Below are positions 20,025 through 37,494 of a stretch of 45,255 nucleotides of DNA, piece after piece; position 1 is the stretch's first letter, and every line of letters starts with the position of its first letter. The stretch is taken from assembly GCA_964426125.1 (NCBI GenBank), contig CAYROZ010000001.1, positions 1 to 45,255 on the forward strand, read 5' to 3'. The stretch is from an uncultured Oscillospiraceae bacterium. Lineage in GTDB: Bacteria; Bacillota; Clostridia; Oscillospirales; Oscillospiraceae. The notes beneath the pieces are model-generated. The model was not told where the DNA came from and made no database searches. It was given only the letters and a program-made list of their open reading frames with translations. The position numbers and the translations under genes are program-made.

Positions 20025-20054
20025 ATGCATGAACTCCTTTCGCCGCACAGGCAG

Positions 20055-20072
20055 CGTGATTTTCTTCACAAT
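20055..20072 (-). promoter_or_regulatory. Candidate Rex/CRP-FNR-type operator in the reductase operon leader
   Basis: Minus strand ATTGTGAAGAAAATCACG. The left half matches the Rex half-site TTGTGAA 7/7, and the right half ATCACGC matches TTCACAA 4/7. The site also reads TGTGA-N6-TCACG. It lies just downstream of the predicted -10. Confidence 0.35.
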
Positions 20073-20083
20073 GTCCTGAGCTT

Positions 20084-20112
20084 ACTATACCACGAGTGCG
20101 CCGGATTGAAAA
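20084..20112 (-). promoter_or_regulatory. Promoter of the reductase operon
   Basis: Minus strand TTTTCA (20112..20107), 17-nt spacer, TGgTATAGT extended -10 (-10 at 20089..20084). Confidence 0.55.
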
Positions 20113-20158
20113 TACCCCACCATTAAGTAACCTTCCTACATGGAAGAAACAAGGAGGA

Positions 20159-20782
20159 ATGTTAGCTTGTCAAAGTTTCGACCAGAGTGATAGAATGAAA
20201 ATGATCACAATGGAGATGGACGATAAAATGGACTTTAAAAATCAGGAAGTGGTTTTCAGCGATGACACGCGCGCCGAAAAGGAGCGAAAGCTGCACTCGC
20301 TGATGTCCACGCAGGAGGAGCGCGAGCGTCTGCTCGAGGTCACGCCGCCGCTGGAGCCGGACGAGCCGAACGTATACGATGACCCCTATTCCCATATGAT
20401 GCGGCTGATCTTCAACCGCTGGAAGCCGTTTTTGCTGCGCGCGATCTATGTGGACGAGGGGACATATTTCTCCAAATTCCTCAAGCAGCTTCCCATCACG
20501 CAGAAGGTGCTCAGCCAGAATTTGAAGGATATGCAAAACGACGGCCTCATCTACCGCAACGTGCTGCCGGAGGTGCCGCCGCGCGTGGAATACTGCCTGA
20601 CGGATTCCGGCCGCGCCATGATCGGACTGCTCGATCTGGTGTATGACTGGGGTTGGGTGGATATGCGGCGCAAGGGACTGCCGGTCGATCCCATGGGCGA
20701 GATCTGGCATGGCTACCGCGAGCGGGATGAGGCGCTTTTGAGCCATCCGCCGCGCAGCGCCCGGCAGAACGAAAGAGGCTGA
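20159..20782 (+). CDS. HxlR-family winged-helix transcriptional regulator with N-terminal extension
   Basis: C-terminal HxlR core: NRWKPFLLRAIYVDEGTYFSKFLKQLPITQKVLSQNLKDMQNDGLIYRNVLPEVPPRVEYCLTDSGRAM. Start is uncertain among ATG 20159 (SD abuts the codon), 20195 and 20228. A possible promoter TTGTCA-18-TGaTAGAAT at 20167..20196 would favour 20228. Confidence 0.8.
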   Translation: MLACQSFDQSDRMKMITMEMDDKMDFKNQEVVFSDDTRAEKERKLHSLMSTQEERERLLEVTPPLEPDEPNVYDDPYSHMMRLIFNRWKPFLLRAIYVDEGTYFSKFLKQLPITQKVLSQNLKDMQNDGLIYRNVLPEVPPRVEYCLTDSGRAMIGLLDLVYDWGWVDMRRKGLPVDPMGEIWHGYRERDEALLSHPPRSARQNERG

Positions 20783-20948: not shown

Positions 20949-22550
20949 ATGAAAAAGTATCTTGCGCTCCTGCTGGCTCTGGCCATGATGCTGGCGCTGG
21001 CCGCGTGCGGCTCGGCTCCGGCGGAGGAAGCGACCACGGCCGAGGCTCCCGCTGCGGCGGCTCCCGAGGCGGCGGCTCCTGCGGCTCCGGGCGAAAAGAG
21101 CACCGAAGTGACCATCGGCGTGGTGGACACCCACTACCCCGCTTATCCCTCCTCCGCGGCGGACGACGACTTCGTCTGCTCCGGCATGGTGTACGATAAG
21201 CTGTTCGAGGTCGACGACTTCACCGGCGAGTATGTCTCCTACATCCTCGACTCCTATGAGTGGCTGGACGACGTGACCTTCACCATGACGGTCAAGGACG
21301 GCATTTACTTCTCCGACGGCAAGCAGATGACCGCCGAGGACGTGCTGTTCTCTCTGCAGAACTACATTCTTCAGGGCGAGACCACCGATAAATATCAGTA
21401 CTATTCCCAGATCGACTTTGGTGCCTGCACCATCTCCGATGACGGCATGACCGTCACCATCGTTTACAAGGCGCCCTATGGCCCCGCGCTGCGCACGCTC
21501 AACTGCCCCGTGATGCAGAAGACCTTCACCGAAGCGCACGCTTCGTCCGAGATGATCTGGTTCACGGCCCCCGTCGGCTCCGGCCCCTATGCTATCACCG
21601 ACATGGTGCAGGACTCCTATGTTGAGTTCACGCTGCGCGAGGATTACTGGGATACCTCCCGTACCTTCGACGCCACCAAGATCACGCTGAAGTTCTACTC
21701 CGATGAAAGCGCCATGTACATGGACTATCAGGCGGGCAACCTGGACGTTATCTACAACATCGGCGCCACCACCGTTGAGTCCATCGAGGCCGCCGGCGGC
21801 GCGCAGGGCACCGTCCAGTACTATCCCGACAACGACGTTCTCTATCTGCACCTCAACGAGGATAACCCCGTTCTGGCCGATCCTCTGGTCCGCGAGGCCA
21901 TTGCCCACGCGCTGGATATGGAATACATCACCGACGTGGCCTACGGCGCGCTCGGCGAACTGGCCACCAGCCACTACCCCACCACCTTCGATGCTTATGT
22001 GGCCCACGAAGGCTATGAGTACGATCCCGAGCTGGCCGTGGAGCTGCTCGAGCAGGCCGGCTACAAGTCCGGCGACATCGTGATCGACTGGGTCTCCCCC
22101 GACCTGCCCCCCGAACCCCAGATCGGCGAGGCCGTGCAGGCTCTGCTCAGCCAGGTCGGCATCACGGTGAACGTGCAGACCTATGAGCTGGCCACCGCGC
22201 TCGGCTACCACCTCGGCGGCGAGACCGACATCTCCTGCAGCCATACCATGGGCGGCAACCCCACCAAGGAGCCGGACAACGCTCTGTCCTCCTTCTATGA
22301 TAAGGGCGCGTTCGCTTCCTTCTCCATCTCCGACCCGCAGTACAACGAGTACTACTACAACGGCCTTTACAGCGTGGACGAGGAGACCCGCTGGGAGAAC
22401 TACCGCAATCTCGACCAGTGGCTGTATGACAACTACATGGTGCTGCCCGTGTGCGAGGTCATGAAGGCTGTGGCCTACAACGACCGCATCGCGAGCTTTG
22501 ACCAGTCCGCGCTGATGCGCAGCTGCCTCGGCTCTCTGAAGCTGGCCTGA
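20949..22550 (+). CDS. ABC transporter substrate-binding lipoprotein, family 5 (peptide/nickel/opine type)
   Basis: Signal peptide with lipobox LALAAC and an Ala/Pro/Glu linker. SBP_bac_5-like body (FTLREDYWD, DVIYNIG, ELLEQAGY). First gene of the permease/ATPase operon. Confidence 0.9.
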   Translation: MKKYLALLLALAMMLALAACGSAPAEEATTAEAPAAAAPEAAAPAAPGEKSTEVTIGVVDTHYPAYPSSAADDDFVCSGMVYDKLFEVDDFTGEYVSYILDSYEWLDDVTFTMTVKDGIYFSDGKQMTAEDVLFSLQNYILQGETTDKYQYYSQIDFGACTISDDGMTVTIVYKAPYGPALRTLNCPVMQKTFTEAHASSEMIWFTAPVGSGPYAITDMVQDSYVEFTLREDYWDTSRTFDATKITLKFYSDESAMYMDYQAGNLDVIYNIGATTVESIEAAGGAQGTVQYYPDNDVLYLHLNEDNPVLADPLVREAIAHALDMEYITDVAYGALGELATSHYPTTFDAYVAHEGYEYDPELAVELLEQAGYKSGDIVIDWVSPDLPPEPQIGEAVQALLSQVGITVNVQTYELATALGYHLGGETDISCSHTMGGNPTKEPDNALSSFYDKGAFASFSISDPQYNEYYYNGLYSVDEETRWENYRNLDQWLYDNYMVLPVCEVMKAVAYNDRIASFDQSALMRSCLGSLKLA

Positions 22551-22581
22551 GCGAACGGCGGCAAAATTTGAGTTTTCCAAA

Positions 22582-22608
22582 GCCAGCCCCCACAAGCTGG
22601 GGGCTGGC
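22582..22608 (+). other. Intra-operon GC-rich stem-loop after the SBP gene
   Basis: GCCAGCCCCC-ACAAGCT-GGGGGCTGGC (10-bp perfect stem) between the SBP stop and the permease SD. No strong T-run follows. This is typical of partial terminators or mRNA stabilisers that raise SBP stoichiometry. Confidence 0.5.
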
Positions 22609-22631
22609 GACTTATTAGGAGGTGCTCATCC

Positions 22632-23606
22632 TTGTTTCGATTCATATTGAAGCGCTTGCTCATCATCATTCCCACGCTGCTGGGTGTGATGCTGGTCATC
22701 TTCACCATCAATTACTTCATCCCCGGCGATCCGGCCATTCTGGCGCTGGGCTCGAACTACACGGAGGAGGCCTATGAAGCCAAGCGGGCGGAAATGGGTC
22801 TGGACAAGTCCTTCATCGTGCGGTATGTGGATTATGTGGTCGATATTGCAACAAAGCTCGATCTCGGCACCTCCTACGATACGTCCCGTCCGGTCAAGGA
22901 CGCCATCTTCAACTCCCGCTTGGGCGTCACGCTGAAGGTGGGCTTGCTCTCGTGCATCATAACCGTTGTGTTGGGGGTGGGCATCGGAATACTGTCGGCG
23001 GTGAAAAAATACACCGCCATCGACTACACGGCCACCACCCTCGCGGTATTTTTCTCGGCGGCTCCGGCCTTCTGGATCGCGCTGATGAGTATGCTCATTT
23101 TCAGCCTCAAGCTCGGGTGGCTGCCGGCCTCGTGGGATAACGGCAGCTTAAAGGGTCTGATTTTGCCGGTGTTCTGCATGGCGCTCAGCCCGATCTCGCT
23201 CGTTGTGCGTATGACGCGCACGAGTATGCTGGATGTGATCAACCAGGACTACATCCGCACGGCCCGTGCCAAGGGCGTGAAGGAGCGCGTCGTTATCTTC
23301 AGCCACGCGCTGCGCAACGCCATGATCCCCGTGCTCACGGTCATTGGCGCGCAGCTTACCATGGTCATCGGCGGCTCGTTCATCATCGAGTCCGTGTTTT
23401 CCATTCCCGGCATCGGCATGCTGCTGCTGTCCGCCATCAACACGCGCGACTTCCCCATGATCCAGGGCACCGTGCTTGTGCTGTCGTTCTTCGTTTGCAT
23501 GGTGAACCTGCTGGTGGATGTGGCCTATGCCTATGCCGACCCGCGAATCAAGGCCCAGTATGAGGGCCAGAACAAGCGCCGCAAGCTGAAAGAAAAGGAG
23601 GCCTGA
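22632..23606 (+). CDS. ABC transporter permease (DppB/OppB type)
   Basis: TTG start 9 nt after AGGAGG. N-terminus FRFILKRLLIIIPTLLGV. EAA-loop region YIRTARAKGVKERVVIFSHALRNA. Confidence 0.92.
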   Translation: MFRFILKRLLIIIPTLLGVMLVIFTINYFIPGDPAILALGSNYTEEAYEAKRAEMGLDKSFIVRYVDYVVDIATKLDLGTSYDTSRPVKDAIFNSRLGVTLKVGLLSCIITVVLGVGIGILSAVKKYTAIDYTATTLAVFFSAAPAFWIALMSMLIFSLKLGWLPASWDNGSLKGLILPVFCMALSPISLVVRMTRTSMLDVINQDYIRTARAKGVKERVVIFSHALRNAMIPVLTVIGAQLTMVIGGSFIIESVFSIPGIGMLLLSAINTRDFPMIQGTVLVLSFFVCMVNLLVDVAYAYADPRIKAQYEGQNKRRKLKEKEA

Positions 23607-23608
23607 GC

Positions 23609-24490
23609 ATGAATAAAAAAGAAACTTCGGGCCCGCGTCTGGACGAGCGCCGCCACAGCCAGCTCGGCGACACCTGGCGGCAGTTCTGCCGCAACAAGCT
23701 GGCCGTGTTTGGCCTTTGCCTGGCGGTGTTTCTGGTGCTGGTCGCCATCTTTGCCAACGTTCTCGCCCCCTATGACCCCACGGCCATTTCCCGCGACCGT
23801 ATGGCCATGCCCTCGGCGGAGCACTGGTGCGGCACGGATAACTTCGGCCGCGACCTGTTCAGCCGCATCATCTACGGCGCGCGCGTGTCGCTGCTGATCT
23901 CGCTTTTGAGTCTGATCATCGGCATGATCATCAGCATTGTGCTCGGCGCCACGGCGGGCTACTTCGGCGGGCTGTATGAGTCCATCGTTATGCGCGTCTG
24001 CGACATCCTCATGTGTATTCCCGGTATGCTGCTGGCGGTGTGCATCTCGGCGCTGCTGGGCGTTGGCATATTGAACACAGCCATCGCCATCGCCATCGGA
24101 GGCATGGCCCCCGGTGTGCGCATGATCCGCGCCACGGTCATGCAGATCCGCTCCCAGGAATATGTGGAGGCCGCCCGCGCCACGGGCTCGGGCCACTTCA
24201 AGATCATCTTCCACGAGATCATGCCGAACGTGCTGTCGCCTCTGATCGTGGACGCCACGATGCGCATCGGCGGCAACATTCTGCAGATCTCGGGTCTGAG
24301 CTTCATCGGCCTCGGCGTGCAGCCGCCCACATCCGAGTGGGGCTCCATCATGAGCGCCGGACAGGAGTTCATCACCAGCTTCTGGCCCATGATCACCTTC
24401 CCCGGCATCGCCATCATGGTGACGGTGTTCGCCTTCAACGTCATGGGCGACGGTCTGCGCGATGCGCTCGACCCGCGCTTGAAGCAGTAA
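23609..24490 (+). CDS. ABC transporter permease (DppC/OppC type)
   Basis: Starts 2 nt after the previous stop. Motifs HWCGTDNFGRDLFSRIIYGARVSL and YVEAARATGSGHFKIIFHEIMPNV. Confidence 0.92.
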   Translation: MNKKETSGPRLDERRHSQLGDTWRQFCRNKLAVFGLCLAVFLVLVAIFANVLAPYDPTAISRDRMAMPSAEHWCGTDNFGRDLFSRIIYGARVSLLISLLSLIIGMIISIVLGATAGYFGGLYESIVMRVCDILMCIPGMLLAVCISALLGVGILNTAIAIAIGGMAPGVRMIRATVMQIRSQEYVEAARATGSGHFKIIFHEIMPNVLSPLIVDATMRIGGNILQISGLSFIGLGVQPPTSEWGSIMSAGQEFITSFWPMITFPGIAIMVTVFAFNVMGDGLRDALDPRLKQ

Positions 24491-24502
24491 GGAGGGGCAG
24501 AC

Positions 24503-25516
24503 ATGAGTCATTTGCTTGAGATCAAAGACCTCGAGGTCGCGTTCCACACCATGGATTCGCACATCCACGCCGTAAACGGCGTGTCGCTTACGCTCGATGC
24601 CGGCGAAACGCTTGGCCTTGTGGGCGAGACCGGCGCGGGCAAAACCACCACGGCGCTGTCCGTGCTCAACCTCATCCAGTCGCCCCCCGGCCGCATCGAA
24701 AAGGGCGAGATATGGTTTGAAGGCAGCGATATTCTGAAAATGACGGACGAGCAGCTGCATGACATCCGCGGCTCGGCCATCAGCATGATATTCCAGGATC
24801 CCATGACCGCGCTCAACCCCATCTTCCGCGTGGAGGACCAGATCGCGGAGGTCGTGAAGATCCACGAAAAGGTATCCAAGCACGAGGCCGTGGCCAAGGC
24901 GCGGGAGATGCTGGAGTTCGTGGGCATCCCCGCCGATCGCGGCGTGGAGTATCCCCACCAGTTCTCCGGCGGCATGAAGCAGCGCGTGGTCATTGCCATG
25001 GCGCTGGCCTGCTCGCCGAAGCTGCTCATTGCCGACGAGCCCACCACCGCGCTGGATGTGACCATTCAGGCGCAGGTGCTCGACATGATGACGGAGCTGA
25101 AAACCAAGCTCAACTCCGCCATGATCCTCATCACGCACGATCTGGGCGTGGTGGCGGAAACCTGCGACAAGGTGGCCATCATGTACGCCGGCGAGATCGT
25201 GGAGCTGGGCACGCTGGAGGATATCTTCGAGCGCACGGCCCACCCCTACACCGAAGGGCTTTTCAACTCGCTGCCCTCGCTCGATTCCGAGGTGGAGCGG
25301 CTCAAGCCCATCGTGGGTCTGATGCCGGACCCGGCGAATCTGCCGGCTGGCTGCAAGTTCCATCCCCGCTGCCCCTATGCCGATGAGCGCTGTGCCCAAA
25401 CCGAGCCGACGCTGCGGGAAAAGGCCCCCGGCCATATGTGCCGCTGCCACCGCATGGAGGAGCTTTCGCTTCGCAGCGTGGACGAAGATGAAGGAAAGGC
25501 GGGTGAGACCCTGTGA
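24503..25516 (+). CDS. ABC transporter ATP-binding protein (OppD/DppD type)
   Basis: Walker [10 protein letters not shown], signature FSGGMKQR, Walker [13 protein letters not shown], and the oligopeptide-type C-terminal Cys motif (CKFHPRCPY). Confidence 0.94.
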
Positions 25517-26478
25517 GTGAAGAGCTGATCCGGGTAGAGCACCTGAAAAAATACTTTGACACGCCGCGCGGCAAGCTGCACGCGGTGGACGATGTCGGCT
25601 TCACGCTCGACGCCGGCAAAACGCTGGGCGTTGTGGGCGAATCCGGCTGCGGCAAGTCAACGCTGGGCCGCACCGTGCTGGGTCTGCTGCCCGCCACGGA
25701 CGGCAAGATATTCTTTGAAGGCCGCGACATCACGCAGGCCAAGGGCCGCGAGCGCCGCGAGCTGCAAAAGGATATGCAGATCATCTTCCAGGACCCCTTT
25801 TCCAGTCTCAACCCCCGCTACACGGTCTTTGAGCTGATCGCCAATCCTCTGCGCTCGTTCCATCTGTGCAGCAGCAAGCAGGAGATCGAGGACAAGGTGT
25901 TCAGTTTGATGGACACCGTGGGTCTGGCCCGCCGCTTTGCCTACTCCTACCCCCACGAGCTCGACGGCGGCCGCCGCCAGCGCATCGGCATCGCCCGCGC
26001 GCTGAGTGTGGACCCGAAGTTCATCGTTTGCGACGAGCCGGTGAGCGCGCTGGATGTTTCCATTCAGGCGCAGGTTCTGAACCTTTTGCAGGACCTGCAG
26101 GCGGAAAAGCACCTCAGCTACATTTTCGTAACGCACGATATGTCCGTCGTCAAGCACATCTCGGACGATATCCTTGTGATGTACGTCGGCTCCATGATCG
26201 AAAAGTGCCCCTCGCGCCGGCTGTTCGAAATGCCGCTGCACCCCTACACCAAGGGCCTTTTGTCCGCCATTCCGGTGCCGTCCATCCGGCGGGAGAAAAA
26301 GCGCATCATCATGCAGGGCGAGCTGACCAGCCCCGTCAATCCCAAGCCCGGCTGCCGCTTTGCCGCGCGCTGCCCCTATGCCAAGGAGCGCTGCCAGCAG
26401 GAGATGCCGACCTACGAGGAGGTCCAGCCCGATCATTTCGTGGCCTGCCACTACGTTCGGGAGATCAACGACCTGTGA
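25513..26478 (+). CDS. ABC transporter ATP-binding protein (OppF/DppF type)
   Basis: GTG start overlaps the previous stop (GTGA). Walker A GESGCGKST, signature LDGGRRQR, Walker B FIVCDEPVSALD, and C-terminal CRFAARCPY. Confidence 0.94.
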   Translation: MSEELIRVEHLKKYFDTPRGKLHAVDDVGFTLDAGKTLGVVGESGCGKSTLGRTVLGLLPATDGKIFFEGRDITQAKGRERRELQKDMQIIFQDPFSSLNPRYTVFELIANPLRSFHLCSSKQEIEDKVFSLMDTVGLARRFAYSYPHELDGGRRQRIGIARALSVDPKFIVCDEPVSALDVSIQAQVLNLLQDLQAEKHLSYIFVTHDMSVVKHISDDILVMYVGSMIEKCPSRRLFEMPLHPYTKGLLSAIPVPSIRREKKRIIMQGELTSPVNPKPGCRFAARCPYAKERCQQEMPTYEEVQPDHFVACHYVREINDL

Positions 26479-27347
26479 AACGAATTTTTCAATGCAGCGC
26501 CGCCGTTTTGGCGGCGCTGTGGCTGTTGCTGCTTTCCGCTGCGGCGGCCGAGCCGGTCATCACGGTGCTGGAAACGGCGCCGCAAACCATCCTGAAGGCC
26601 GCGCCGCTGCGCGAGGAATGCGAGCTGGGCCAAACGGCGGCGGATGCGCTGCGCGCCGTGTCGGGCGCGGATGCGGCGCTGGTGCCCGGCGGCGAGCTGG
26701 CCAACGATCTGAACGCCGGCGCGGTCACGGCGGCGGATATCGCGCGCGTGTTTGCCCAGGACCGGCCTCTGGCCGTGGCGGCGCTGACGGCGGCAGAGCT
26801 GTGGGCGCTGCTGGAATGGTCGGTCCATGCCATCGTGGTCGATCCCGACACGGAGACGGTGGTGGCGGAGGCGTCGGATTTTGATGGGTTTTGCCATGTT
26901 TCGGGCCTGAAGATGGTATATGATGCTTCGGCCCCCGCGGGCGATCGCGTGCAGAGCGTCACGCTGGACGACGGGCGCAAGCTCGATAAAACCGACGGGA
27001 GCACCGTTTTGCGCGTGTGCGCGCCCGGGGCGCTGTTCGACGGGGCGTACGACTATCCGCTGCATCCCGCCGAGCCCATGGGCGACACGCTGTGCAGCGC
27101 GCTGGCGGCGTATGCAGCCGGGAAAACGGCGCTGCCGGAATCGGACGCGGCGCGCATCGTGGTGCTCGGGGCGCGGGAAAATGCGCTGGTGGGCGCGGTG
27201 CCGCGCGGGCTGCTGGTCGTGGGCTGCGTGGTGCTGATCGCGCTGCTGGTCGTGCCGGGGCAAAAGCTCGGGCGCTACCGGGATGAATTTGAAGTAAACG
27301 ACGAAAAATGGGCCAAAGGCTACCGCAGGCAGGGCCGGAAAAGATAA
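26475..27347 (+). CDS. Extracytoplasmic, membrane-anchored protein consisting only of a 5'-nucleotidase C-terminal (substrate-binding) domain
   Basis: GTG start overlaps the ATPase stop (GTGA). Signal peptide AAVLAALWLLLLSAAAA. 5_nucleotid_C-like blocks ECELGQTAADALR, DAALVPGGELANDL, AGAVTAADIARVF, SGLKMVYDASAPAGDRVQSVTLDDGRKLD. C-terminal TM followed by a basic tail. No metallophosphatase domain is present. Confidence 0.75.
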   Translation: MKRIFQCSAAVLAALWLLLLSAAAAEPVITVLETAPQTILKAAPLREECELGQTAADALRAVSGADAALVPGGELANDLNAGAVTAADIARVFAQDRPLAVAALTAAELWALLEWSVHAIVVDPDTETVVAEASDFDGFCHVSGLKMVYDASAPAGDRVQSVTLDDGRKLDKTDGSTVLRVCAPGALFDGAYDYPLHPAEPMGDTLCSALAAYAAGKTALPESDAARIVVLGARENALVGAVPRGLLVVGCVVLIALLVVPGQKLGRYRDEFEVNDEKWAKGYRRQGRKR

Positions 27348-27399: not shown

Positions 27400-28899
27400 T
27401 TATTCGTTTCTAAGGGCCTCGGCAACGCTTTCACCCGCGAGGAAGCCGGAGGAGAGCGCCCAGGACATATCGTTGAGCACCTGGCGCTTCACGCCGCCCA
27501 GACTGATGTGGCGGCCGCCGGCGAAATCGCCCGTGACGTAAAGGCCCGGAACCAGACTGCCATCGGGCCGATAGGCCTGCATATCGGCGTTCACGGCCAC
27601 GCCGCCGAACGCGCCGTCCGTGTTCAGACGGGCGGCCAGCGCGAAATACGGGCCCTGCGCCAGCGGCAGCATGGTTTTCGGGTCCTTGAAATAGTCCCAG
27701 TCCTTCCCTTCGGCGCAGGAGATGTTGTAGGTTGAAACGGTGCGGGCCAGCGCGGCGGGATCAACGCCCATCTGCCCGGCGAGCGCATCGAGACTGTCCG
27801 CCATGAAAACGCCCTTGGTGCCCTTGGCCATCGCATCGCGGAACCAGCCGTGGATGACCGGCGTGTCCGGCAGCGGCGGCTTGGGGAAGGGGCCGGGCTC
27901 GTTGGTGCCGGATTTCGATTCGGCGACCATCCGCTCGAGAATGTTCTGGCTGAACAGGAAGAAGCTGCGGCCCTTGGGCAGCTTCAGCAGCACATGGCCG
28001 GTGTCGAACGGATCCATGCGCGGCACCAGCGGCTCCGCGGCGAAGCGGCGGCCCGTCAGATCGACCAGAATGCAGTAGTCGCTGAGCGAAAGCGGATAGA
28101 ACACGGAGGTCTCCCCCGTGGCGCACATGGGGCCCATGATGCGCAGACAGAAGTTGTCCCAGTCCACAAAAGCGCCGGCCTTTTCCGCGATGGGGATGCC
28201 GTCGCCGGTGTAGGCGGGGTTCTGGTGGGCGTTGGGCATGATGTCCAGATCGCGGAACGCGGGCATCACCTTGTCCATCACGGCCTCGTTTCGTATCCAG
28301 GTGCTGCACGAGAGGATGCACACGCGGCAGCCGAAGCGCACGCGGCCCTCCGGCGTTTCGGCCCAGATGGCCGTGATGCGGCCGTTTTCCACCTCGGCAT
28401 CCACGGCGCGGTGCTCCGTGAGCACCTCAATGCCGCGGGCCTCGCATTGGCGCAGCATGGTTGCCACGATCAAGCGGCCCGAGCCGTTGTGGAAGCCGTC
28501 CTGCTGCGGGCCGGGCTGGCCGTGGACGGGGATATCGAAGATGTAGGGGCGCGGCTCGTATTTGGCCAGAATTTCGGGCAGCTCAAACCGGCTGTACCAG
28601 TCGAAGAAGCGGCCCGTGCTCAAAACGGCGCGGCGCACCAGCTTGGCGTCGAGCTTCCAGAAGGTCAGATCCATGCCCTGGCGGATGAAGTCGTTGGACT
28701 GGTCGCGGATGCCGCGGTCGGCCTGCCACTGGCTGCCGAAGGTGCGCATGGTGGAGGCGAACAGCATCCCGCCGCCGGGCTTTTTGGCCTTTTCCAGCAC
28801 GATCACGCGCTTGCCGGAAAGCTCCGCCGCGCGCACTGCGGCCACCAGACCGCTGCCGCCGCCGCCGACGACCAGAATATCACAGTTGCGTTCAGTCAT
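27400..28899 (-). CDS. FAD-dependent oxidoreductase, FAD_binding_2 family (paralog A)
   Basis: DILVVGGGGSGLVAAVRAAELSGKRVIVLEK at the N-terminus and GLYVTGDFAGG near the C-terminus. No signal peptide. ATG overlaps the stop of paralog B (ATGA). SD AAGGAG. Confidence 0.88.
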   Translation of the reverse strand: MTERNCDILVVGGGGSGLVAAVRAAELSGKRVIVLEKAKKPGGGMLFASTMRTFGSQWQADRGIRDQSNDFIRQGMDLTFWKLDAKLVRRAVLSTGRFFDWYSRFELPEILAKYEPRPYIFDIPVHGQPGPQQDGFHNGSGRLIVATMLRQCEARGIEVLTEHRAVDAEVENGRITAIWAETPEGRVRFGCRVCILSCSTWIRNEAVMDKVMPAFRDLDIMPNAHQNPAYTGDGIPIAEKAGAFVDWDNFCLRIMGPMCATGETSVFYPLSLSDYCILVDLTGRRFAAEPLVPRMDPFDTGHVLLKLPKGRSFFLFSQNILERMVAESKSGTNEPGPFPKPPLPDTPVIHGWFRDAMAKGTKGVFMADSLDALAGQMGVDPAALARTVSTYNISCAEGKDWDYFKDPKTMLPLAQGPYFALAARLNTDGAFGGVAVNADMQAYRPDGSLVPGLYVTGDFAGGRHISLGGVKRQVLNDMSWALSSGFLAGESVAEALRNE

Positions 28900-30380
28900 G
28901 AGGTAAGCTCCTTTTCTATGTGGTCTGCCGCGTGTTCGGCGGCCAGTTTGCCGGAGGTGCAGGCCCAGCCCAGCGTTACGCCCTCATAGGACACATAGGC
29001 GTTGTTCACAAGACCGCCGCTGGCGTCGCATCCGGCGGCGTACAGGCCGGGGATGGGGCGGCCGTCGGGCCGCAGCGCCTGCATGGCGGTGTTGATGCGC
29101 AGTCCGCCCAGCGAGCAAAGCTGGTTGGCGCGCCCTTCGATCAGATAATAGGGCCCCGCGCCGTAGGCGTGCAGATAGGCGGGGTCCTTGCCGTACATAT
29201 CGTCGCGTCCGGCGGCGCACAGCGCGTTATAGTCCGCCACGGTTTGCGACAGCGCGGCGGCGTCCATGCCGGCCGACCCGGCCAGCGCGGAAAGCGAATC
29301 GCCCCTGTGCACCACGCCGCAGGTGAGCCCTTCGCGCAGCTGCGCGGGAAAATCGGTCCAAGGCGTGTCCGGGTCGAGCCCGCGCAGATCGGTGTCCAGT
29401 CCCAGGGCGCGCGCGCCTTTTTCCGTGAGTGCGTCGGCCATGGTCTGGTCGAGCAGGATATAATACTCGCTGCCCTGGCGGAAAACGGCGTTGCCGGTGT
29501 AGGAGATGTCCTCCCACACGCCCTCGTTTACAAAGCGCTGGCCGAGGCGGTTGAGCCAAAGCACGCCAGGAAAGCCCGTCAGCCGGCTCAGCTCGTTGCC
29601 ATGGCGGCCGATGGAGGCGCGGCTGAGCTTGTCGCAGGGAACGTCGCAGCCGTGCAGCTCGATGGCGTCCGGATTTTCCGTGCCGCAGCCGATGTCCATG
29701 GCCATGCGTATGCCGTCGCCGGTTTGAAAGCCGGTGTTGATGGCGTTCACCTTCACGCCGCGCGTGGCGCGCAGCACCATTTCCTCGTTTGCGCCGTAGC
29801 CGCCCGTGCAGGCGATCACGGCCCGGCCGTAAACCGCAAAGCGGCCCTGCTCGTCCCGCGCCCACACACCGGCGACGCGGCCGGAGTCCACGATCAGCTC
29901 CTCTGCCGCCGTGCGCAGAAGGACCTGCCCGCCGCCTTCTTCCACGCGCCGGATCAGACGGCGCATCTCCCCGGCTTTGTAGGTGTCCCAGATGAAATAG
30001 GTCTGGAAGGGACTGTGGGCATGCTTTGGCTGCACGGTGCCGACATAATCGATCCTGCAGCCGAGCGCCTGCAGCCAGTCCACGGTCTCGCCGCTGTGGC
30101 GCAGATATTCGTGGATGAGGGCGAAGTTGGCCAGATAGTTGGTCTGCTCCATCCAGTCGTGCAGCATCTGCGCGATGGTGAAGGCGCCTTTGGGGCTGTT
30201 TCTCTGGTCGCGGGCTCCCACGGCGCCCAGACCGCGCGCCATCGCCGCCGAACCGCCTACAGAAGGCGCCTTTTCCAGCAGGATGACCCGCTTGCCAAGC
30301 TGGGCGGCCCGCATGGCGGCGCAGAATCCGGCCCCGCCGCCGCCGAGAACGATGATGTCGCCGTGAATGCTTCTTTCCAT
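28896..30380 (-). CDS. FAD-dependent oxidoreductase, FAD_binding_2 family (paralog B)
   Basis: DIIVLGGGGAGFCAAMRAAQLGKRVILLEK, CTGGYGAN, and GLYAAGCDASGG. No signal peptide. Confidence 0.88.
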   Translation of the reverse strand: MERSIHGDIIVLGGGGAGFCAAMRAAQLGKRVILLEKAPSVGGSAAMARGLGAVGARDQRNSPKGAFTIAQMLHDWMEQTNYLANFALIHEYLRHSGETVDWLQALGCRIDYVGTVQPKHAHSPFQTYFIWDTYKAGEMRRLIRRVEEGGGQVLLRTAAEELIVDSGRVAGVWARDEQGRFAVYGRAVIACTGGYGANEEMVLRATRGVKVNAINTGFQTGDGIRMAMDIGCGTENPDAIELHGCDVPCDKLSRASIGRHGNELSRLTGFPGVLWLNRLGQRFVNEGVWEDISYTGNAVFRQGSEYYILLDQTMADALTEKGARALGLDTDLRGLDPDTPWTDFPAQLREGLTCGVVHRGDSLSALAGSAGMDAAALSQTVADYNALCAAGRDDMYGKDPAYLHAYGAGPYYLIEGRANQLCSLGGLRINTAMQALRPDGRPIPGLYAAGCDASGGLVNNAYVSYEGVTLGWACTSGKLAAEHAADHIEKELTS

Positions 30381-30426
30381 TGACGCGTGGTTCCTTTTTC
30401 GTTAAAATGTTTTATATATTTTGCGC

Positions 30427-30460
30427 TTGTGCGCACCCATACTAATTTATATAATTATAT
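30427..30460 (+). promoter_or_regulatory. Candidate promoter and operator of the NTF2-like operon, within a divergent AT-rich control region
   Basis: TTGTGC (30427..30432), 17-nt spacer, TATAAT (30450..30455). The palindrome GTGCGCAC (30429..30436) overlaps the -35. The perfect 12-bp palindrome ATATAATTATAT (30449..30460) overlaps the -10. Confidence 0.5.
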
Positions 30461-30502
30461 TATATTCACATTCCGGACAAACGCAAGAAGGAGATCAAAA
30501 TT

Positions 30503-31243
30503 ATGCGCGATATCGGCAACAGTGCAGCGCTGGCGGATCGGTGGCATGACCGGCGCGCTGTGATGAATCTGGCGGGCAAATACGTCATGAGTCTGCTGCT
30601 CAAGCGCGAGGGCAGCTTGTTTGATGATTTCTGGAGTGCGCGGGAGGACGTGTGCCTGCGCTTTAACGACGGCAGCTACGTCGGAGCGGCGGCCGTGCGC
30701 GGCTATTATGCGGCGCAGTGCGAAAACACGGCGCTGGTGTCGCGGTTTTTGAAGGAGCGCTTCCCCGCGCAGCTCGGCTCGATGAGCGAGGAGGAGCTTT
30801 TCGGCGTGGGGCAGTTCCACGGCCTTCCCATCACGACCCCGGTGGTGGAGGTGGCCGGAAACGGCGAAACGGCCCGCGGCCTGTGGCACGTTCACGGAAC
30901 GGACAATACGCTTGGGCCCTGGGGGCCGCTTTCGTGGTGGAAGCTCGGCTTTCTGGCCATCGATTTTCGCCGGGAGGGAGGCCGGTGGCGGCTGTGGCAC
31001 GTGTTCCACGCGGAGGATGTGACCGCGCCCATGGGCGAAAACTGGCTGCGGCCCGCGGAGCGAAAGGAGCTGCCGGAATACGCTGCGCTCAAGGCGCTGA
31101 AAAAGCCTGCATACACCGTGGTGCGGGACAATTACCGGCCCTATTCGCCCACGCGGCCGCTTGCGCCGCCGCCGGAGATCCCGGAGCCCTATGAAAGCTT
31201 CGAACAGATCGTCGGCTATGGAGAGGAGGCGAGCGTGCGATGA
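30503..31243 (+). CDS. NTF2/SnoaL-like fold protein, long form (paralog 1)
   Basis: SD AGAAGGAGA. SnoaL_4-like pattern (AVMNLAGKYV..., GETARGLWHVHG, LAIDFRREGGRWRLWHVF) plus an approximately 80-aa Pro-rich C-terminal extension containing PEPYESF. Confidence 0.7.
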   Translation: MRDIGNSAALADRWHDRRAVMNLAGKYVMSLLLKREGSLFDDFWSAREDVCLRFNDGSYVGAAAVRGYYAAQCENTALVSRFLKERFPAQLGSMSEEELFGVGQFHGLPITTPVVEVAGNGETARGLWHVHGTDNTLGPWGPLSWWKLGFLAIDFRREGGRWRLWHVFHAEDVTAPMGENWLRPAERKELPEYAALKALKKPAYTVVRDNYRPYSPTRPLAPPPEIPEPYESFEQIVGYGEEASVR

Positions 31244-32028
31244 GCTTTGCGTACCGCGAATTTTCCGATGACGAGCTGATCGATCGCGTTTGGGACCAGG
31301 AGAACATACGGGACACGATGGGCCGCTTTGCCTATTACGAGGCGGCAAACCGCCGCCGCGAGGCGCTGGAGCGCTTTTGGGTGCAGGAGTCTGAAAACCG
31401 GGCCACGGCGTCGTTTGGGCGCAACTGGGGCTTTCTGCGCGGCATGGAGGAGATAGAGGCGTATTACGTCGGGCGCTGCCGCTTCGGCGGCGTGGGAACG
31501 GCGCTGATGCACCCGCTTTCCACCAAGCTTTTGTATCTGGCCGAGGACGGTTCCACGGCGCAGGGAATGTGGATGGGCATCGGCTATGAAATGGCCCCGG
31601 ACAGCCGGGGCGAGCCGGATGCCAAGTGGGTCAGCGAGCGCGTGGCGGTGGATTTCATCCGCGAGGGCGGCACGTGGCGCATCTGGCATATGTTCATCGG
31701 CACGAACTACGTTTTGTCCGCCGGGGAAAACTACCGCGAGCAGCCCATTGCCGTGCGCACCGTGACGCGCGGGGAGGGCGGGCCGCACTGGTATGTGGTG
31801 GGCCGGGGCCGCGAGAGGACGGCGGGCCCTGTGGCGCAGTTTGATCAGATACCGGACTGGCCGGAGCGGGAGGCGTTTTTGAACGGGCGCGAGCCGGAGG
31901 AGATATACACCGCGCTGTATAACGACCCGCTGCATTTTCCGCCGCTGCCGCAGCCGTACCGCACGTTTGCCGAAACCGTGAGCTATGGGCCCGCGGGCTT
32001 TTCGGCAAGTCTTGAAGGGAGGGTTTGA
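31240..32028 (+). CDS. NTF2/SnoaL-like fold protein, long form (paralog 2)
   Basis: ATG overlaps the previous stop (ATGA). SD GGAGAGGAGG. Motifs DGSTAQGMWMGIG and VAVDFIREGGTWRIWHMF. C-terminal tail contains PQPYRTF. Confidence 0.7.
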   Translation: MSFAYREFSDDELIDRVWDQENIRDTMGRFAYYEAANRRREALERFWVQESENRATASFGRNWGFLRGMEEIEAYYVGRCRFGGVGTALMHPLSTKLLYLAEDGSTAQGMWMGIGYEMAPDSRGEPDAKWVSERVAVDFIREGGTWRIWHMFIGTNYVLSAGENYREQPIAVRTVTRGEGGPHWYVVGRGRERTAGPVAQFDQIPDWPEREAFLNGREPEEIYTALYNDPLHFPPLPQPYRTFAETVSYGPAGFSASLEGRV

Positions 32029-32033
32029 GCCGG

Positions 32034-32810
32034 ATGGAGCAAAGCACACACGAGAAGATCCGCGCGGCAGGAGCCTGCCTGGAGGTGGAAAATCTCCATG
32101 CCCGCCACTGCTATATGCACTGCGCGGGGCGCAACGTGGAGGAAGTGGACCGCTGCTGGCTGAAAAGCGACGAGGTATCCTGGGGCCATGGCTTCGGCAA
32201 ATGGGTCGGCTGGCAGGGCGTGAAATTCGGCTGGGGCTCCAGTTTGGAGCGGCAGGGGCTCGGCGCGTATCTGGAGCTCACGCAAACCTGGCCGCAGGTG
32301 ACGGGGCTGGACCCGCGCCCGCTGTATGAGTCCGCCATGCACACGCTGGCCACGGACATCATCGAGGTGGCCGCCGACGGCCAAACGGCGCGCGCCTTTT
32401 TCTACACGCCGGGGGCCGTGACCTCCACGCTCAATGCCGATGGCCGGCGCGAGGGCGTTTGGATGTGGGAGCGCTACGGCGTGGAATACGCGCGGGACGC
32501 GGACGGGCAGTGGAAATTCCGCACCATTCAGGTCTGTCCCGATCTGGTGGCCCCGCTTGACTGCGTCAATCCGGCGCGGGAAAGCATGGCACGATTGCAG
32601 TCGCCGCAGCCGCCGCATGGCTTTCCGGAGGGACAGGTGCTCGGCTGCGCCGGGCCGATCGCGCCCATTGTGGACGAGCCGGAGCCGGTCCATGCCGACT
32701 GGTCGCTCGTTCAGCCGGTGCAAAATCCCGTTCCCTGGCCGGAGCCGTATGAAACACTCGATCCGGCGCGTTCGTACCGCTATCGCGTGCAGGATCAACC
32801 GGCGGAATAG
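32034..32810 (+). CDS. NTF2/SnoaL-like fold protein, long form (paralog 3, most divergent)
   Basis: ATG 32034 lies 10 nt after GGGAGGG. An in-frame TTG at 32025 would overlap the previous stop. Motifs DGQTARAFFYTPG and YARDADGQWKFRTIQV. C-terminal tail contains PEPYETL. Confidence 0.65.
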   Translation: MEQSTHEKIRAAGACLEVENLHARHCYMHCAGRNVEEVDRCWLKSDEVSWGHGFGKWVGWQGVKFGWGSSLERQGLGAYLELTQTWPQVTGLDPRPLYESAMHTLATDIIEVAADGQTARAFFYTPGAVTSTLNADGRREGVWMWERYGVEYARDADGQWKFRTIQVCPDLVAPLDCVNPARESMARLQSPQPPHGFPEGQVLGCAGPIAPIVDEPEPVHADWSLVQPVQNPVPWPEPYETLDPARSYRYRVQDQPAE

Positions 32811-32861
32811 ACTTTTTTGGCGGCAAAGTGCGCCGCGCGTGGGTTTCGACACAAAAAAGAC

Positions 32862-32890
32862 TTGAATACAGGATTTGTATGTAATATAAT
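32862..32890 (+). promoter_or_regulatory. Promoter of the PPIase gene
   Basis: TTGAAT (32862..32867), 17-nt spacer, consensus TATAAT (32885..32890). Confidence 0.75.
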
Positions 32891-32945
32891 GTATCAGTCA
32901 CGCTGGGCAACCGGCGGAAAATCTCGCAAAAGGGTGAATATACAC

Positions 32946-34442
32946 ATGAGCGCATCAAAAGACAAGATCAATCGCAAACAGCTCCGCGAGGCCGGACAGG
33001 ACAAGCACCAGCTTGCCCAGGAGAAGGAAATGGCTGCCCGCCGCAAAAGCCGCTTGAAATACGGCATCGTTGCCGCGGTGGTCGTGGTCGTGTTCGCCTT
33101 CATCTTCCTGTTCAACTCCGCTCTGCCGAGCCGGAATCTGACCGGTGTTACCATCGACGGACAGGATTACTCCGTTGCGCAGCTGAACTACTACTACTCC
33201 AACAGCTACCAGAACTTCTACAGCACCTACTATCAGTACCTGCAGTATGGTCTGTTCTTCGACACCAGCATCAGCCTCGGCGACCAGCAGTATTCCGAGG
33301 ATATGACCTGGCGCGAGTACTTCCTTGACCAGGCCGTGGAGAACATGAAGCAGGTGCAGGCGCTGTGTGCCGCCGGCGAGGCTGCGGGCTTTGAGCTGGA
33401 CGAGGAGCATCAGGCCGAGTATGACGAGGCCGTCGCAAGCCTTGAGACCAGCTGGCAGACCAACGGCTACTCCAGTCTCAAGCAGTTTTTGAATCTGGTC
33501 TACGGCAAGGGCGTGGACGAGCAGATGGTCAAGGACGAGATGTACCGCAGCGTGTACGCCTCCGCCTATGCGGAATATATGTACGACAGCTACGAATACA
33601 CGGCCGATGAGCTGAGCGCCTACTACGCGGAAAATGCCGACCAGTACGACGTTATCACCTACGCCACCTATTCGGCGGTCGTGGATGAGGAGACCGACGA
33701 CGGCACGAAGGAGGCCATGGAGACCATGGCGGCGGCCGTTGACGGCACCGACGAGGAGACCTTCGCGGCGTATGTGGCCGAAAACTTCGACGGCGAGGAG
33801 CTCGGCACGAACAGCACGCAGGGCGCCAATCTGTCCGAGGCGTATGCCGAGTGGCTGCTCGATGACGCGCGTCAGGCGGGCGACTGCGAGCTGACGGAGA
33901 GCAACGGCATGAGCTATGTTGTGATGTTCCTGGGCCGCGAGGACAACCAGTATAAAACGCGCGCGTTCCGCCACATCCTTGTGATGGCGGAGGACACCAA
34001 CGGCGACGAAGTCCTCTCCACGGAGGAAGTGCAGGAGGCCACGGCCCGCGCCGAGGAGATCTACGAGGAGTGGAAGGGCGGCGACGCCACGGAGGACAGC
34101 TTTGCCGCGCTGGCCAACCTTTACAGCGAGGACACCGGCTCGAACACCACCGGCGGCCTGTATGAGGACGTTTACAAAAACCAGATGGTCGCCCCGGTCA
34201 ACGACTGGCTGTTTGACGAGGCCGCGAACGTTGGCGACACTGCAGTTGTCACCTACAACGAGGGCGGCAGCTACGACGGCGCTCACGTTCTGTACTACGT
34301 TGGCGAAAGCGACGAGGTTTATGCCGACGAGCTGGCGGACAGCTACATGCGCAGCGAAACCGCGACCGAGTGGCTCGAGGAGCTGACCGGCGCCATGGAG
34401 TCCAGGCTTTCCAACACCGGCATCGCCGCGAAGAACTACTGA
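32946..34442 (+). CDS. Membrane-anchored parvulin-type peptidyl-prolyl isomerase (PrsA/SurA-like)
   Basis: Start at ATG 32946. Basic N-terminus followed by TM (YGIVAAVVVVVFAFIFLF). Chaperone-like middle region. Parvulin block FRHILVMAED...TGGLYEDVYKNQMVAPVNDWLF. Confidence 0.8.
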   Translation: MSASKDKINRKQLREAGQDKHQLAQEKEMAARRKSRLKYGIVAAVVVVVFAFIFLFNSALPSRNLTGVTIDGQDYSVAQLNYYYSNSYQNFYSTYYQYLQYGLFFDTSISLGDQQYSEDMTWREYFLDQAVENMKQVQALCAAGEAAGFELDEEHQAEYDEAVASLETSWQTNGYSSLKQFLNLVYGKGVDEQMVKDEMYRSVYASAYAEYMYDSYEYTADELSAYYAENADQYDVITYATYSAVVDEETDDGTKEAMETMAAAVDGTDEETFAAYVAENFDGEELGTNSTQGANLSEAYAEWLLDDARQAGDCELTESNGMSYVVMFLGREDNQYKTRAFRHILVMAEDTNGDEVLSTEEVQEATARAEEIYEEWKGGDATEDSFAALANLYSEDTGSNTTGGLYEDVYKNQMVAPVNDWLFDEAANVGDTAVVTYNEGGSYDGAHVLYYVGESDEVYADELADSYMRSETATEWLEELTGAMESRLSNTGIAAKNY

Positions 34443-36415: not shown

Positions 36416-36844
36416 TCAGTCCTCGCAGTCGAGCTCAAGCTCCTCGATCTCGTCGAGATCGAACTCAAGCTTCGCGCCGCAGTTGGGGCAGGAAATGCAG
36501 CCGGACTCAAGCGTGTCCTCGTCGAAGCAGATGCTGTCGCCGCACTCGGGGCAGGTGACCTCGTAGTTGAAGCCGTCGTCCTCGTCGTCGTCATCATAAT
36601 CCTCGTCTTCGTCGTCCCACTCGTCGTAAACGACGCACTCGAGATCTTCCAGATCGTCGCTGACGACGTCCAGACCCTCGCTCAACTCATCGACTGCGAC
36701 GTCCAGGTCGTCCACGTCCAGCGCCAGATCCTCGAGAATGTCCACGATCTGGGCCAGGATCTTGCTTTCCTTGGTGTCGCCGCCGGCCAGTCCGTAGCCT
36801 TCGACCAGACCCTTCAGATACGCTACTTTTTCGGAAGTTGTCAT
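36416..36844 (-). CDS. Highly acidic protein with C-terminal zinc ribbon (CD1247 N-terminal-domain-like)
   Basis: 142 aa. Long D/E tracts (DEWDDEDEDYDDDDEDD). CPECG...CPNCG zinc-ribbon pair. Lies 44 nt downstream of efp. Confidence 0.7.
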   Translation of the reverse strand: MTTSEKVAYLKGLVEGYGLAGGDTKESKILAQIVDILEDLALDVDDLDVAVDELSEGLDVVSDDLEDLECVVYDEWDDEDEDYDDDDEDDGFNYEVTCPECGDSICFDEDTLESGCISCPNCGAKLEFDLDEIEELELDCED

Positions 36845-36888: not shown

Positions 36889-37455
36889 TCAGCCCTTCGC
36901 GCGGCCAAGATACTCGCCCGTGCGGGTGTCGATCTCGATGCGCTCGCCCGGCTCGATGAACAGGGGGACCTTGATCTCCGCGCCGGTTTCCACGGTGGCG
37001 GGCTTGGTGGCGTTGGTGGCGGTGTTGCCGGCGAAGCCGGGGTCGGTTTCCGTGATCTCAAGGGTCACGAAGTTGGGCGCTTCGACGGAGAAGCAGGAGC
37101 CGTTGTAGAAAGCGAGCGTGCAGACCTCGTTTTCCTTCACGAAGCGGAAGCTGTCGGAAAGCTTGGTCTTGTCCACGGGCTCGAGCTCGTAGGTCTCGGA
37201 ATCCATGAAGTAGTACAGGTCGCCGTCGGAGTAGCTGTACTCCATGTTCTTGCGCTCGACATAAGCGTTTTCAAACTTGGCCGAGGGGTTGAACGATTCC
37301 TCACGGATGGCGCCGGTGATGATGTTTTTGTACTTGGTGCGCACGAACGCCGCGCCCTTGCCGGGCTTGACGTGCTGGAACTCGATGACCTGCATGGGCT
37401 GGCCATTCATTTCAAAGGTTACGCCGTTGCGAAAATCGCCTGCTTCAATAGGCAT
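36889..37455 (-). CDS. efp: Translation elongation factor P
   Basis: Start at ATG 37455 (SD GGAGGATATATCA). [19 protein letters not shown] loop and canonical length of 188 aa. Confidence 0.97.
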
Positions 37456-37494
37456 TGATATATCCTCCAAATGTTATTTATTTTCCAACGATAA

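Follow-up and report, generated by a model that had tools for sequence, protein, structure and literature searches.

The stretch of DNA analysed here (the window) spans 45,255 nucleotides of contig CAYROZ010000001.1 from an uncultured Oscillospiraceae bacterium and carries three tandem genes, named A, B, and C, that code for proteins of the NTF2/SnoaL fold, each ending in a long C-terminal arm with the motif P-x-P-Y-x-[ST]-[FL]. The three proteins are genuine but ancient paralogs and belong to one clade of long-arm NTF2-fold proteins that includes the diarylpropane lyase LdpA. The reading favoured here, to which we assign a probability of about 0.5, is that they form a cytoplasmic A-B-C heterotrimer whose subunits exchange their arms and in which C would be the main catalytic subunit; the complex would eliminate a group from its substrate or isomerise it without a cofactor, in tandem with flavin-dependent C=C reduction.

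The three open reading frames (ORFs) are present on the + strand as first described, at positions 30503-31243 (A, 246 amino acids), 31240-32028 (B, 262 amino acids), and 32025-32810 (C, 261 amino acids from a TTG at 32025 or 258 from an ATG at 32034), all three coding for long-arm SnoaL_4/NTF2 proteins, and the core beta-sheet blocks quoted for each of them in the earlier note are found in the translations. The Shine-Dalgarno sequence AAGGAGA lies upstream of the ATG start of A at 30503, and A overlaps B by 4 nucleotides (ATGA). B overlaps C by 4 nucleotides (TTGA) only when C starts at the TTG at 32025, the in-frame ATG at 32034 being the alternative start. The beginning of C is therefore ambiguous (32025-32036): the TTGA overlap mirrors the ATGA of most orthologs, with a Shine-Dalgarno sequence only about 2-3 nucleotides from the TTG, while the ATG has the better Shine-Dalgarno spacing.

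The common origin of the three proteins is supported by domain, sequence, and profile comparisons. Pfam SnoaL_4 (PF13577) matches A, B, and C with 31.5, 34.5, and 35.7 bits, respectively, above its gathering cut-off of 24 bits and in a single stretch per protein, and no NCBIfam model matches any of the three. Pairwise BLASTP aligns them over their full length at 22-25% identity (E-values of 9e-17, 1e-7, and 5e-10), and profile-profile comparison between the subfamilies returns probabilities of 99.2% and 99.8%, with an alignment that extends through the tails. The AlphaFold2 models of A (mean predicted local distance difference test, pLDDT, 90.2; predicted template modelling score, pTM, 0.87) and C (mean pLDDT 87.8, pTM 0.86) each contain one NTF2 alpha+beta cone, made of three helices followed by a curved four- to five-stranded sheet; the loop that joins helix 3 to the first long strand is enlarged. 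After this core, which takes up about 175-180 residues, comes a C-terminal arm of about 70-85 residues, almost devoid of regular secondary structure and mostly modelled with confidence (pLDDT 60-94), the lowest values, of about 60, falling in a linker within the arm of C. What had been taken for roughly twice a canonical NTF2/SnoaL domain is thus one core plus a long arm, and a domain duplication is ruled out by the single SnoaL_4 stretch per protein and the single core in the models.

Searches of the PDB with profiles of A, B, or C, or of all three jointly, return LdpA as the only significant match (E-value down to 5e-13). Foldseek also places LdpA first, both for the model of A (E-value 5.5e-10) and for that of C (1.4e-9), with about 260 columns aligned to 8ABT/8ABU, followed by LinA as the next-best group, BaiE, putative scytalone dehydratases, and gallate decarboxylase; the CaMKII hub, NXF1-NXT1, and designed vitamin-D binders are also among the matches. 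A single-sequence PDB search with A finds only chance matches to ribosomal proteins, and a PDB search with the tail only finds a spurious match to a designed repeat protein via an unrelated WSLV segment. The architecture, which the earlier note did not recognise as a described family, is therefore not wholly undescribed, as LdpA (PDB 8ABT/8ABU/8ABV/8ABW) is a solved member of the long-arm clade.

The tail motif of this arm stands, on the + strand, exactly where it had been located: PEPYESF in A (31181-31201), with a conserved aromatic at +9 (GYG); PQPYRTF in B (31948-31968), followed by SYGP; and PEPYETL in C (32739-32759), preceded by a conserved Trp (WPEPYET). Despite the lack of regular secondary structure, these regions reach a pLDDT of 86-94 in the two AlphaFold models (86-91 in A, 92-94 in C). 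The expectation that the motif is family-wide is borne out by alignment to homologs: the pattern P.P[YF].[ST][FLIMVY] occurs in the last 45 residues of 294 of the 398 full-length relatives versus 3 of 398 shuffled tails, and 208 of the 294 motif-bearing relatives have a second aromatic at +9 after it. Among 23 orthologs of A (41-99% identity), Y214, R218, P224, P227, E228, Y230, F233, and Y239 are invariant, and P227, Y230, and Y239 (A numbering) are among the only eleven columns that are at least 90% conserved in the joint alignment of the three subfamilies. When the 74 non-redundant triads are compared, the conserved tails differ from one subfamily to the next but share P-x-P-Y-x-T. The same ending is found in each of the three proteins of a distinct, shorter "type II" triad clade, as well as in a fourth, solo subfamily, where it reads PP[VLE]PY[RE]TF.ETF.Y; its presence in solo paralogs that have no triad partners indicates a generic feature of the arm rather than one specific to heteromers. 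As to its role, the idea of an inter-subunit clasp is favoured by LdpA, a homotrimer in which the C-terminal arm contacts the adjacent monomer and stabilises the trimer (PMC9942872).

The triad is conserved as a unit. A scan of one genome per species detects 376 loci, of which the best 80 were examined together with four from an exact protein look-up; almost all of the best 80 belong to Oscillospiraceae from gut or rumen that have not been cultured, and a single genome often carries several loci. The genes follow the order A-B-C on one strand in 75 of the 75 loci with room for them, 74 of these triads being non-redundant. Measured with inferred start codons, the gap between A and B is at most 20 nucleotides in 93% of the triads, and that between B and C in 99%, with an overlap in 77%. 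Moreover, A and B are recurrently fused. A profile search that covered 1.84 billion cluster representatives (50% identity clusters) yields 1,120 representatives at an E-value of 1e-10 or lower, and eleven A-B fusions are present among the top 150, seven to nine of which score strongly for both halves. In at least one fusion (P0300), a Pro/Ala-rich linker of about 45 residues joins the halves, while in P0297 and P0298, the A arm halts at the P-E-P motif and runs straight into the N-terminus of B. Given this invariant, tight arrangement, the homologs do not occur as single genes, and the arrangement agrees, as do the recurrent fusions, with the hetero-oligomer suggested in the earlier note.

Several related forms accompany these observations. 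Two-domain long-arm NTF2 fusions are found in P0297-P0304, P0307, P0323, P0327, P0330, P0357, P0398, and P0418, with the order A-B in close relatives and other orders in distant ones, some of which are seemingly high in G+C. The family is also present in a very prevalent human-gut species of the Coprococcus group, with Pseudocoprococcus immobilis as a cultured representative. The type II triad clade (244/221/216 amino acids; L085 3008-5091, L086 17117-18774) shares an island with a type I triad in a Coprococcus-group species of high prevalence, whose sequence cluster is listed in 749 blocks of the collection. None of its three members scores better against one of the A, B, and C models than against the others, and all of them keep the canonical His and end in P-x-P-Y. 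The solo long-arm subfamily (241-250 amino acids; L015 4989-5741, L086 4508-5233, L088 6689-7414, and nine other loci) has its gene immediately before that of the OYE-type flavoenzyme which itself lies ahead of the triad. Its proteins retain the canonical His, carry WDSGKY where LdpA has WESGIY, and end exactly at the motif (PPVPYRTFSETFSY). Database names of the family members are all "hypothetical protein" or "nuclear transport factor 2 family protein", and literature searches on SnoaL/NTF2-like proteins, Oscillospiraceae, heterotrimers, gut flavoenzymes, and Pseudocoprococcus immobilis retrieve no description of the family.

The three subunits differ in the residues that they retain at the catalytic positions. 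In LdpA, the catalytic machinery consists of a His-Asp dyad (His97-Asp40 in NaLdpA) and a Glu-Tyr-Gln motif (Glu143-Tyr165-Gln170, with Tyr147 also lining the pocket) (PMC9942872), and the corresponding positions were mapped on Y35, D40, H97, E143, and Y147 of NaLdpA with HMMER and MAFFT alignments. A keeps the Tyr at Y35 (Y27) and has Leu at D40, Leu or Pro at H97, and Lys/Thr and Leu at E143/Y147. B has Phe at Y35 and Ala at D40, keeps the His at H97 (MHPLST) in 70-90% of its orthologs, and does not keep E143/Y147. C has an invariant His (H28) at Y35, a variable residue (Cys/Gly) at D40, and H106 at H97 (at least 90% conserved), and the strand that corresponds to E143/Y147 contains WERYG, in which the Glu is invariant and the Tyr is at least 90% conserved. 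The Tyr/Asp/His set of BaiE and KSI, to which the earlier note pointed, is accordingly conserved in full in none of them. C is the most conserved subunit and the one with the most invariant polar columns: it has about 20 invariant columns, mostly polar, versus 9 in B, and they include H28, E40, H55, D96, E114, D118, E149, and D179, with H32, R98, H106, R123, R150, C171, and D173 near-invariant. The absence of the canonical His and Asp in A and of the canonical Tyr and Asp in B indicates that these two subunits are probably mainly structural or substrate-shaping.

The genes that surround the triads point to flavin chemistry and import. A flavoenzyme of about 650 amino acids that combines OYE and Pyr_redox_2 domains and is of the iron-sulfur (Fe-S) type neighbours the triad in 45 of the 84 loci; its best model is BaiCD, at 424-428 bits against an equivalog cut-off of 825. 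Opp-type ATP-binding cassette (ABC) transporters are near the triads in about 20-25 of the 84 loci, GntP permeases in 11, and FAD_binding_2 enzymes and LysR regulators in 10 each. When the count is restricted to the 41 non-redundant loci whose flanks both reach 3 kb or more, a flavoenzyme is within the flanks in 28 and directly adjacent in 18. The window itself belongs to the FAD_binding_2 type. F1 (28896-30380, - strand, 494 amino acids) is a fumarate-reductase/KstD-type FAD_binding_2 flavoenzyme divergent from the triad, and F2 (27400-28899, - strand, 499 amino acids) is a second FAD_binding_2 flavoenzyme that overlaps F1 by 4 nucleotides; the best NCBIfam match of both is the vinyl phenol reductase VprA, well below the cut-off (264 bits for F1). 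This divergent F2-F1/A-B-C arrangement is shared by L006, the closest relative, and L087 repeats nearly the whole island of the window. No signal peptide is present in the sequences of A, B, C, F1, or F2, which start directly with folded domains, indicating a cytoplasmic, import-dependent system and ruling out an extracellular respiratory reductase system.

On these grounds, A, B, and C are proposed to assemble 1:1:1 as a pseudo-threefold heterotrimer that would have diversified from homotrimers of the LdpA/LinA/BaiE/scytalone dehydratase type. Each arm of 70-85 residues would wrap onto the neighbouring subunit, with the P-x-P-Y-x-T-[FL]...Y segment as its putative anchoring point, and C would likely be the catalytic subunit, through a His-rich pocket with a Glu/Tyr pair (H28, H32, H55, H106, E149, Y151). 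The complex would probably act on an imported small molecule by an elimination of the dehydration, deformylation, or decarboxylation type, or by an isomerisation, with no cofactor, in a reaction that would create or move a conjugated C=C bond. The neighbouring flavoenzymes, that is, the two VprA/fumarate-reductase-type FAD enzymes in the window and the BaiCD-like Fe-S flavoenzyme in most relatives, would then reduce this bond afterwards or introduce it beforehand, following the logic of BaiE with BaiCD or of an LdpA-type lyase followed by VprA-type reduction.

Several points weigh against this proposal. The heterotrimer is inferred from genome evidence and from analogy with homotrimeric relatives, and the fusions are metagenomic gene calls, some of which could be frameshift or read-through artefacts. 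The dyad Asp of LdpA, BaiE, and LinA is kept in none of the three subunits, so that the mechanism cannot simply be that of any of these enzymes and enzymatic activity is not assured. Moreover, HMMER aligns E149 of C with E143 of LdpA, and MAFFT places it two positions away. A retains invariant polar residues of its own, such as R18, N22, K26, Y59, D154, and H166, and with such residues kept in both A and B, these subunits may not be inert. Lastly, about one-third of the well-flanked loci contain no flavoenzyme within 8 kb.

It is unlikely, in our estimate, that A, B, and C act instead as separate homo-oligomeric enzymes, each an LdpA-like homotrimer serving successive steps, or different stereoisomers or analogues, of one pathway, with the shared pathway as the sole cause of their co-transcription. 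The characterised close relatives (LdpA, LinA, and BaiE) are all homotrimers, solo long-arm paralogs with the same motif stand beside OYE genes, indicating that arm and motif work without triad partners, and each subfamily has conserved polar residues of its own; however, the fact that all 75 loci hold one copy of each gene in an unchanging order, the overlapping stop and start codons, the recurrent A-B fusions, and the loss of the canonical catalytic residues in A would be unusual for merely co-functional paralogs. The incomplete His-Asp dyad of all three subunits would also suit a triad that works as a non-enzymatic ligand-binding or scaffold complex, whose NTF2 pockets carry or sense a hydrophobic or aromatic metabolite and which serves the flavoenzymes or the transporter through substrate presentation, stabilisation, or regulation. 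Many NTF2-like proteins are non-catalytic binders or hubs, including the CaMKII hub, NXF1-NXT1, and the designed vitamin-D binders retrieved by Foldseek, and the type of the partner flavoenzyme varies. Such a role appears still less probable than separate enzymes, since the many invariant His, Glu, Asp, Arg, and Cys residues in and around the predicted pocket of C are what one would expect of a catalytic or metal-binding site, every one of the nearest structural relatives is an enzyme, and one-third of the loci have no nearby flavoenzyme to serve.

The least likely of the alternatives, and in our view an improbable one, assigns a different task to the tail motif, which instead of acting as a clasp would be a docking peptide through which the NTF2 proteins are brought to the flavoenzymes or to some other partner common to them. 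The motif is short, Pro-rich, C-terminal, and without regular secondary structure, as linear docking motifs often are, and flavoenzymes are frequent neighbours. Nevertheless, it is equally conserved next to OYE-type enzymes, next to FAD_binding_2-type enzymes, and in loci with neither, and this independence of the neighbouring flavoenzyme does not sustain the docking role that had been put forward alongside the clasp. It is also confidently modelled in monomers, with no partner present, and a similar W-P-x-x-Y-E occurs in LdpA, an enzyme without a flavoenzyme partner, within the arm that makes its trimer contacts.

If the arm-exchanged heterotrimer is correct, its derivation from a homotrimeric NTF2 enzyme, with specialised subunits, would show clearly how paralogs can make a small enzyme fold more complex. 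More broadly, the association of the triad with flavin ene-reductase-type enzymes and importers marks a probable metabolite-transformation module, whose logic resembles that of bile-acid 7-dehydroxylation (BaiE and BaiCD) or of lignin-dimer cleavage followed by vinylphenol-type reduction. A bolder and rather doubtful extension of this idea holds that an obligate A1B1C1 complex, with one catalytic and two degenerate subunits joined by exchange of their motif-bearing arms, is the cofactor-free "eliminase" half of a widespread, multi-copy eliminate-then-reduce system, the other half being the BaiCD-like or VprA-like flavoenzymes. With it, uncultured Oscillospiraceae and the Coprococcus group would transform imported dietary or host metabolites, in an undescribed class of gut pathway whose logic would parallel bile-acid 7-dehydroxylation. 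Most of the family is found in Oscillospiraceae of gut and rumen that have not been cultured, and the cultured carrier Pseudocoprococcus immobilis makes experiments feasible; assignment of the substrate could explain a gut microbial conversion that is currently without a gene. Other genes recur in the triad islands and may hint at the substrate class, namely short-chain dehydrogenases, a Dabb (alpha+beta barrel) protein, alpha/beta hydrolases, and a protein of about 610 amino acids with a faint beta-helix signal (L086 3287-4397; L085 1908-2924; L060 14024-15883).

The remaining features of the window lie on both sides of the triad. The divergent intergenic region between F1 and A (30381-30502) is 122 bp long and AT-rich, in a contig of 62% GC; a promoter-like site, TTGACG-17-TAAAAT (30380-30408, + strand), is found there by consensus match only, and TATA-rich near-palindromic repeats (TTTATATAATTATATTATAT) within the region could be an operator. 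Further upstream, an Opp/Dpp-type ABC importer (20949-26478, + strand) comprises an SBP_bac_5 binding protein (20949-22550), two permeases, and two ATPases, and is preceded by an HxlR-type transcription regulator (20096-20782, + strand), which probably begins further downstream than called. The gene at 26451-27347 (+ strand), which separates the ABC ATPase genes from F2, codes for a 5'-nucleotidase C-terminal domain with a C-terminal membrane anchor and without the N-terminal metallophosphatase domain. A ferredoxin-fused FAD_binding_2 reductase of 580 amino acids (18327-20069, - strand) is overlapped by the call of a GltD-like protein with Fer4_20 and Pyr_redox_2 domains (16993-18870, - strand), whose start is over-called. 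The arrangement of this pair (16993-20069) suggests a dedicated module for electron input from NAD(P)H to the flavoenzymes, and the pair is repeated beside the triad in L087 (9890-13069).

Directly downstream of C, the gene at 32817-34442 (+ strand, likely start near 32949) codes for a membrane-anchored PpiC/PrsA-like protein with 27% identity (E-value 6e-19) to a 366-amino-acid protein (L017 7948-9048), whose gene follows the triad and a GntP permease in 7 related loci; the PpiC/PrsA-like protein may be a member of the system or may reflect shared synteny. The very acidic protein of 142 amino acids with two CxxC pairs (zinc-ribbon-like) at 36416-36844 (- strand), beside the elongation factor P gene (36889-37470), appears unrelated to the triad.

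Among known systems, LdpA is the closest. It falls in the same size class (242-251 amino acids, versus 246-262 for A, B, and C) and has the same composition of one NTF2 core plus a long arm; its canonical His (H97) is kept in B and C, and C has a Glu/Tyr pair on strand beta5, at or beside E143/Y147 of LdpA. The arm of SpLdpA contains TWPHRYEV (W-P-x-x-Y-E), similar to PWPEPYET in C, a likeness that is suggestive only and comes from a partial sequence of the LdpA arm (TWPHRYEVPMSF). On the other hand, A and C are only 17-20% identical to LdpA in the Foldseek alignments, below the level of 40% at or under which paralogs of LdpA are reported to have been inactive on DGPD (PMC9942872). In LdpA, an enzyme of aerobic sphingomonads, one gene supplies all three subunits and the His-Asp dyad is complete, whereas the window encodes three diverged paralogs from anaerobic gut Clostridia, all without the dyad Asp, and flavin reductases and importers adjoin them instead of a lignostilbene dioxygenase context.

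BaiE is likewise a SnoaL_4 protein found among the Foldseek matches of A and C, at 14% identity, and the bai operon of Clostridium scindens and relatives offers a similar combination of an NTF2 dehydratase with Fe-S flavoenzymes of about 640 amino acids with OYE and Pyr_redox_2 domains (BaiCD/BaiH). However, BaiE has about 166 amino acids, lacks the long arm and the tail motif, is encoded by a single gene, and has an intact Tyr30/Asp35/His83 set. The window contains no baiB, baiF, baiA, or baiG, its flavoenzymes are FAD_binding_2 enzymes and not of the BaiCD type, and no coenzyme A (CoA) ligase or CoA transferase is found beside the BaiCD-like enzyme in the related loci. Orthology with BaiE is ruled out by length, catalytic residues, and gene context.

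LinA and scytalone dehydratase share the fold class, the trimeric state, and cofactor-free elimination with the proposed complex, and differ as short single-gene homotrimers with a His-Asp dyad, without the arm motif or a paralog triad. Precedents for mixed NTF2-fold oligomers, which sometimes include one catalytically weakened partner, are the NXF1-NXT1 and Mex67-Mtr2 heterodimers and the adjacent PhzA/PhzB paralogs of phenazine synthesis, although these are dimers without an arm-exchange motif and with unrelated functions and taxa. Trimeric NTF2 lyases, their fold, and the long arm are thus already known, unlike an invariant module of three paralogs with specialised subunits that has expanded in gut Clostridia and is linked to flavin reductases.

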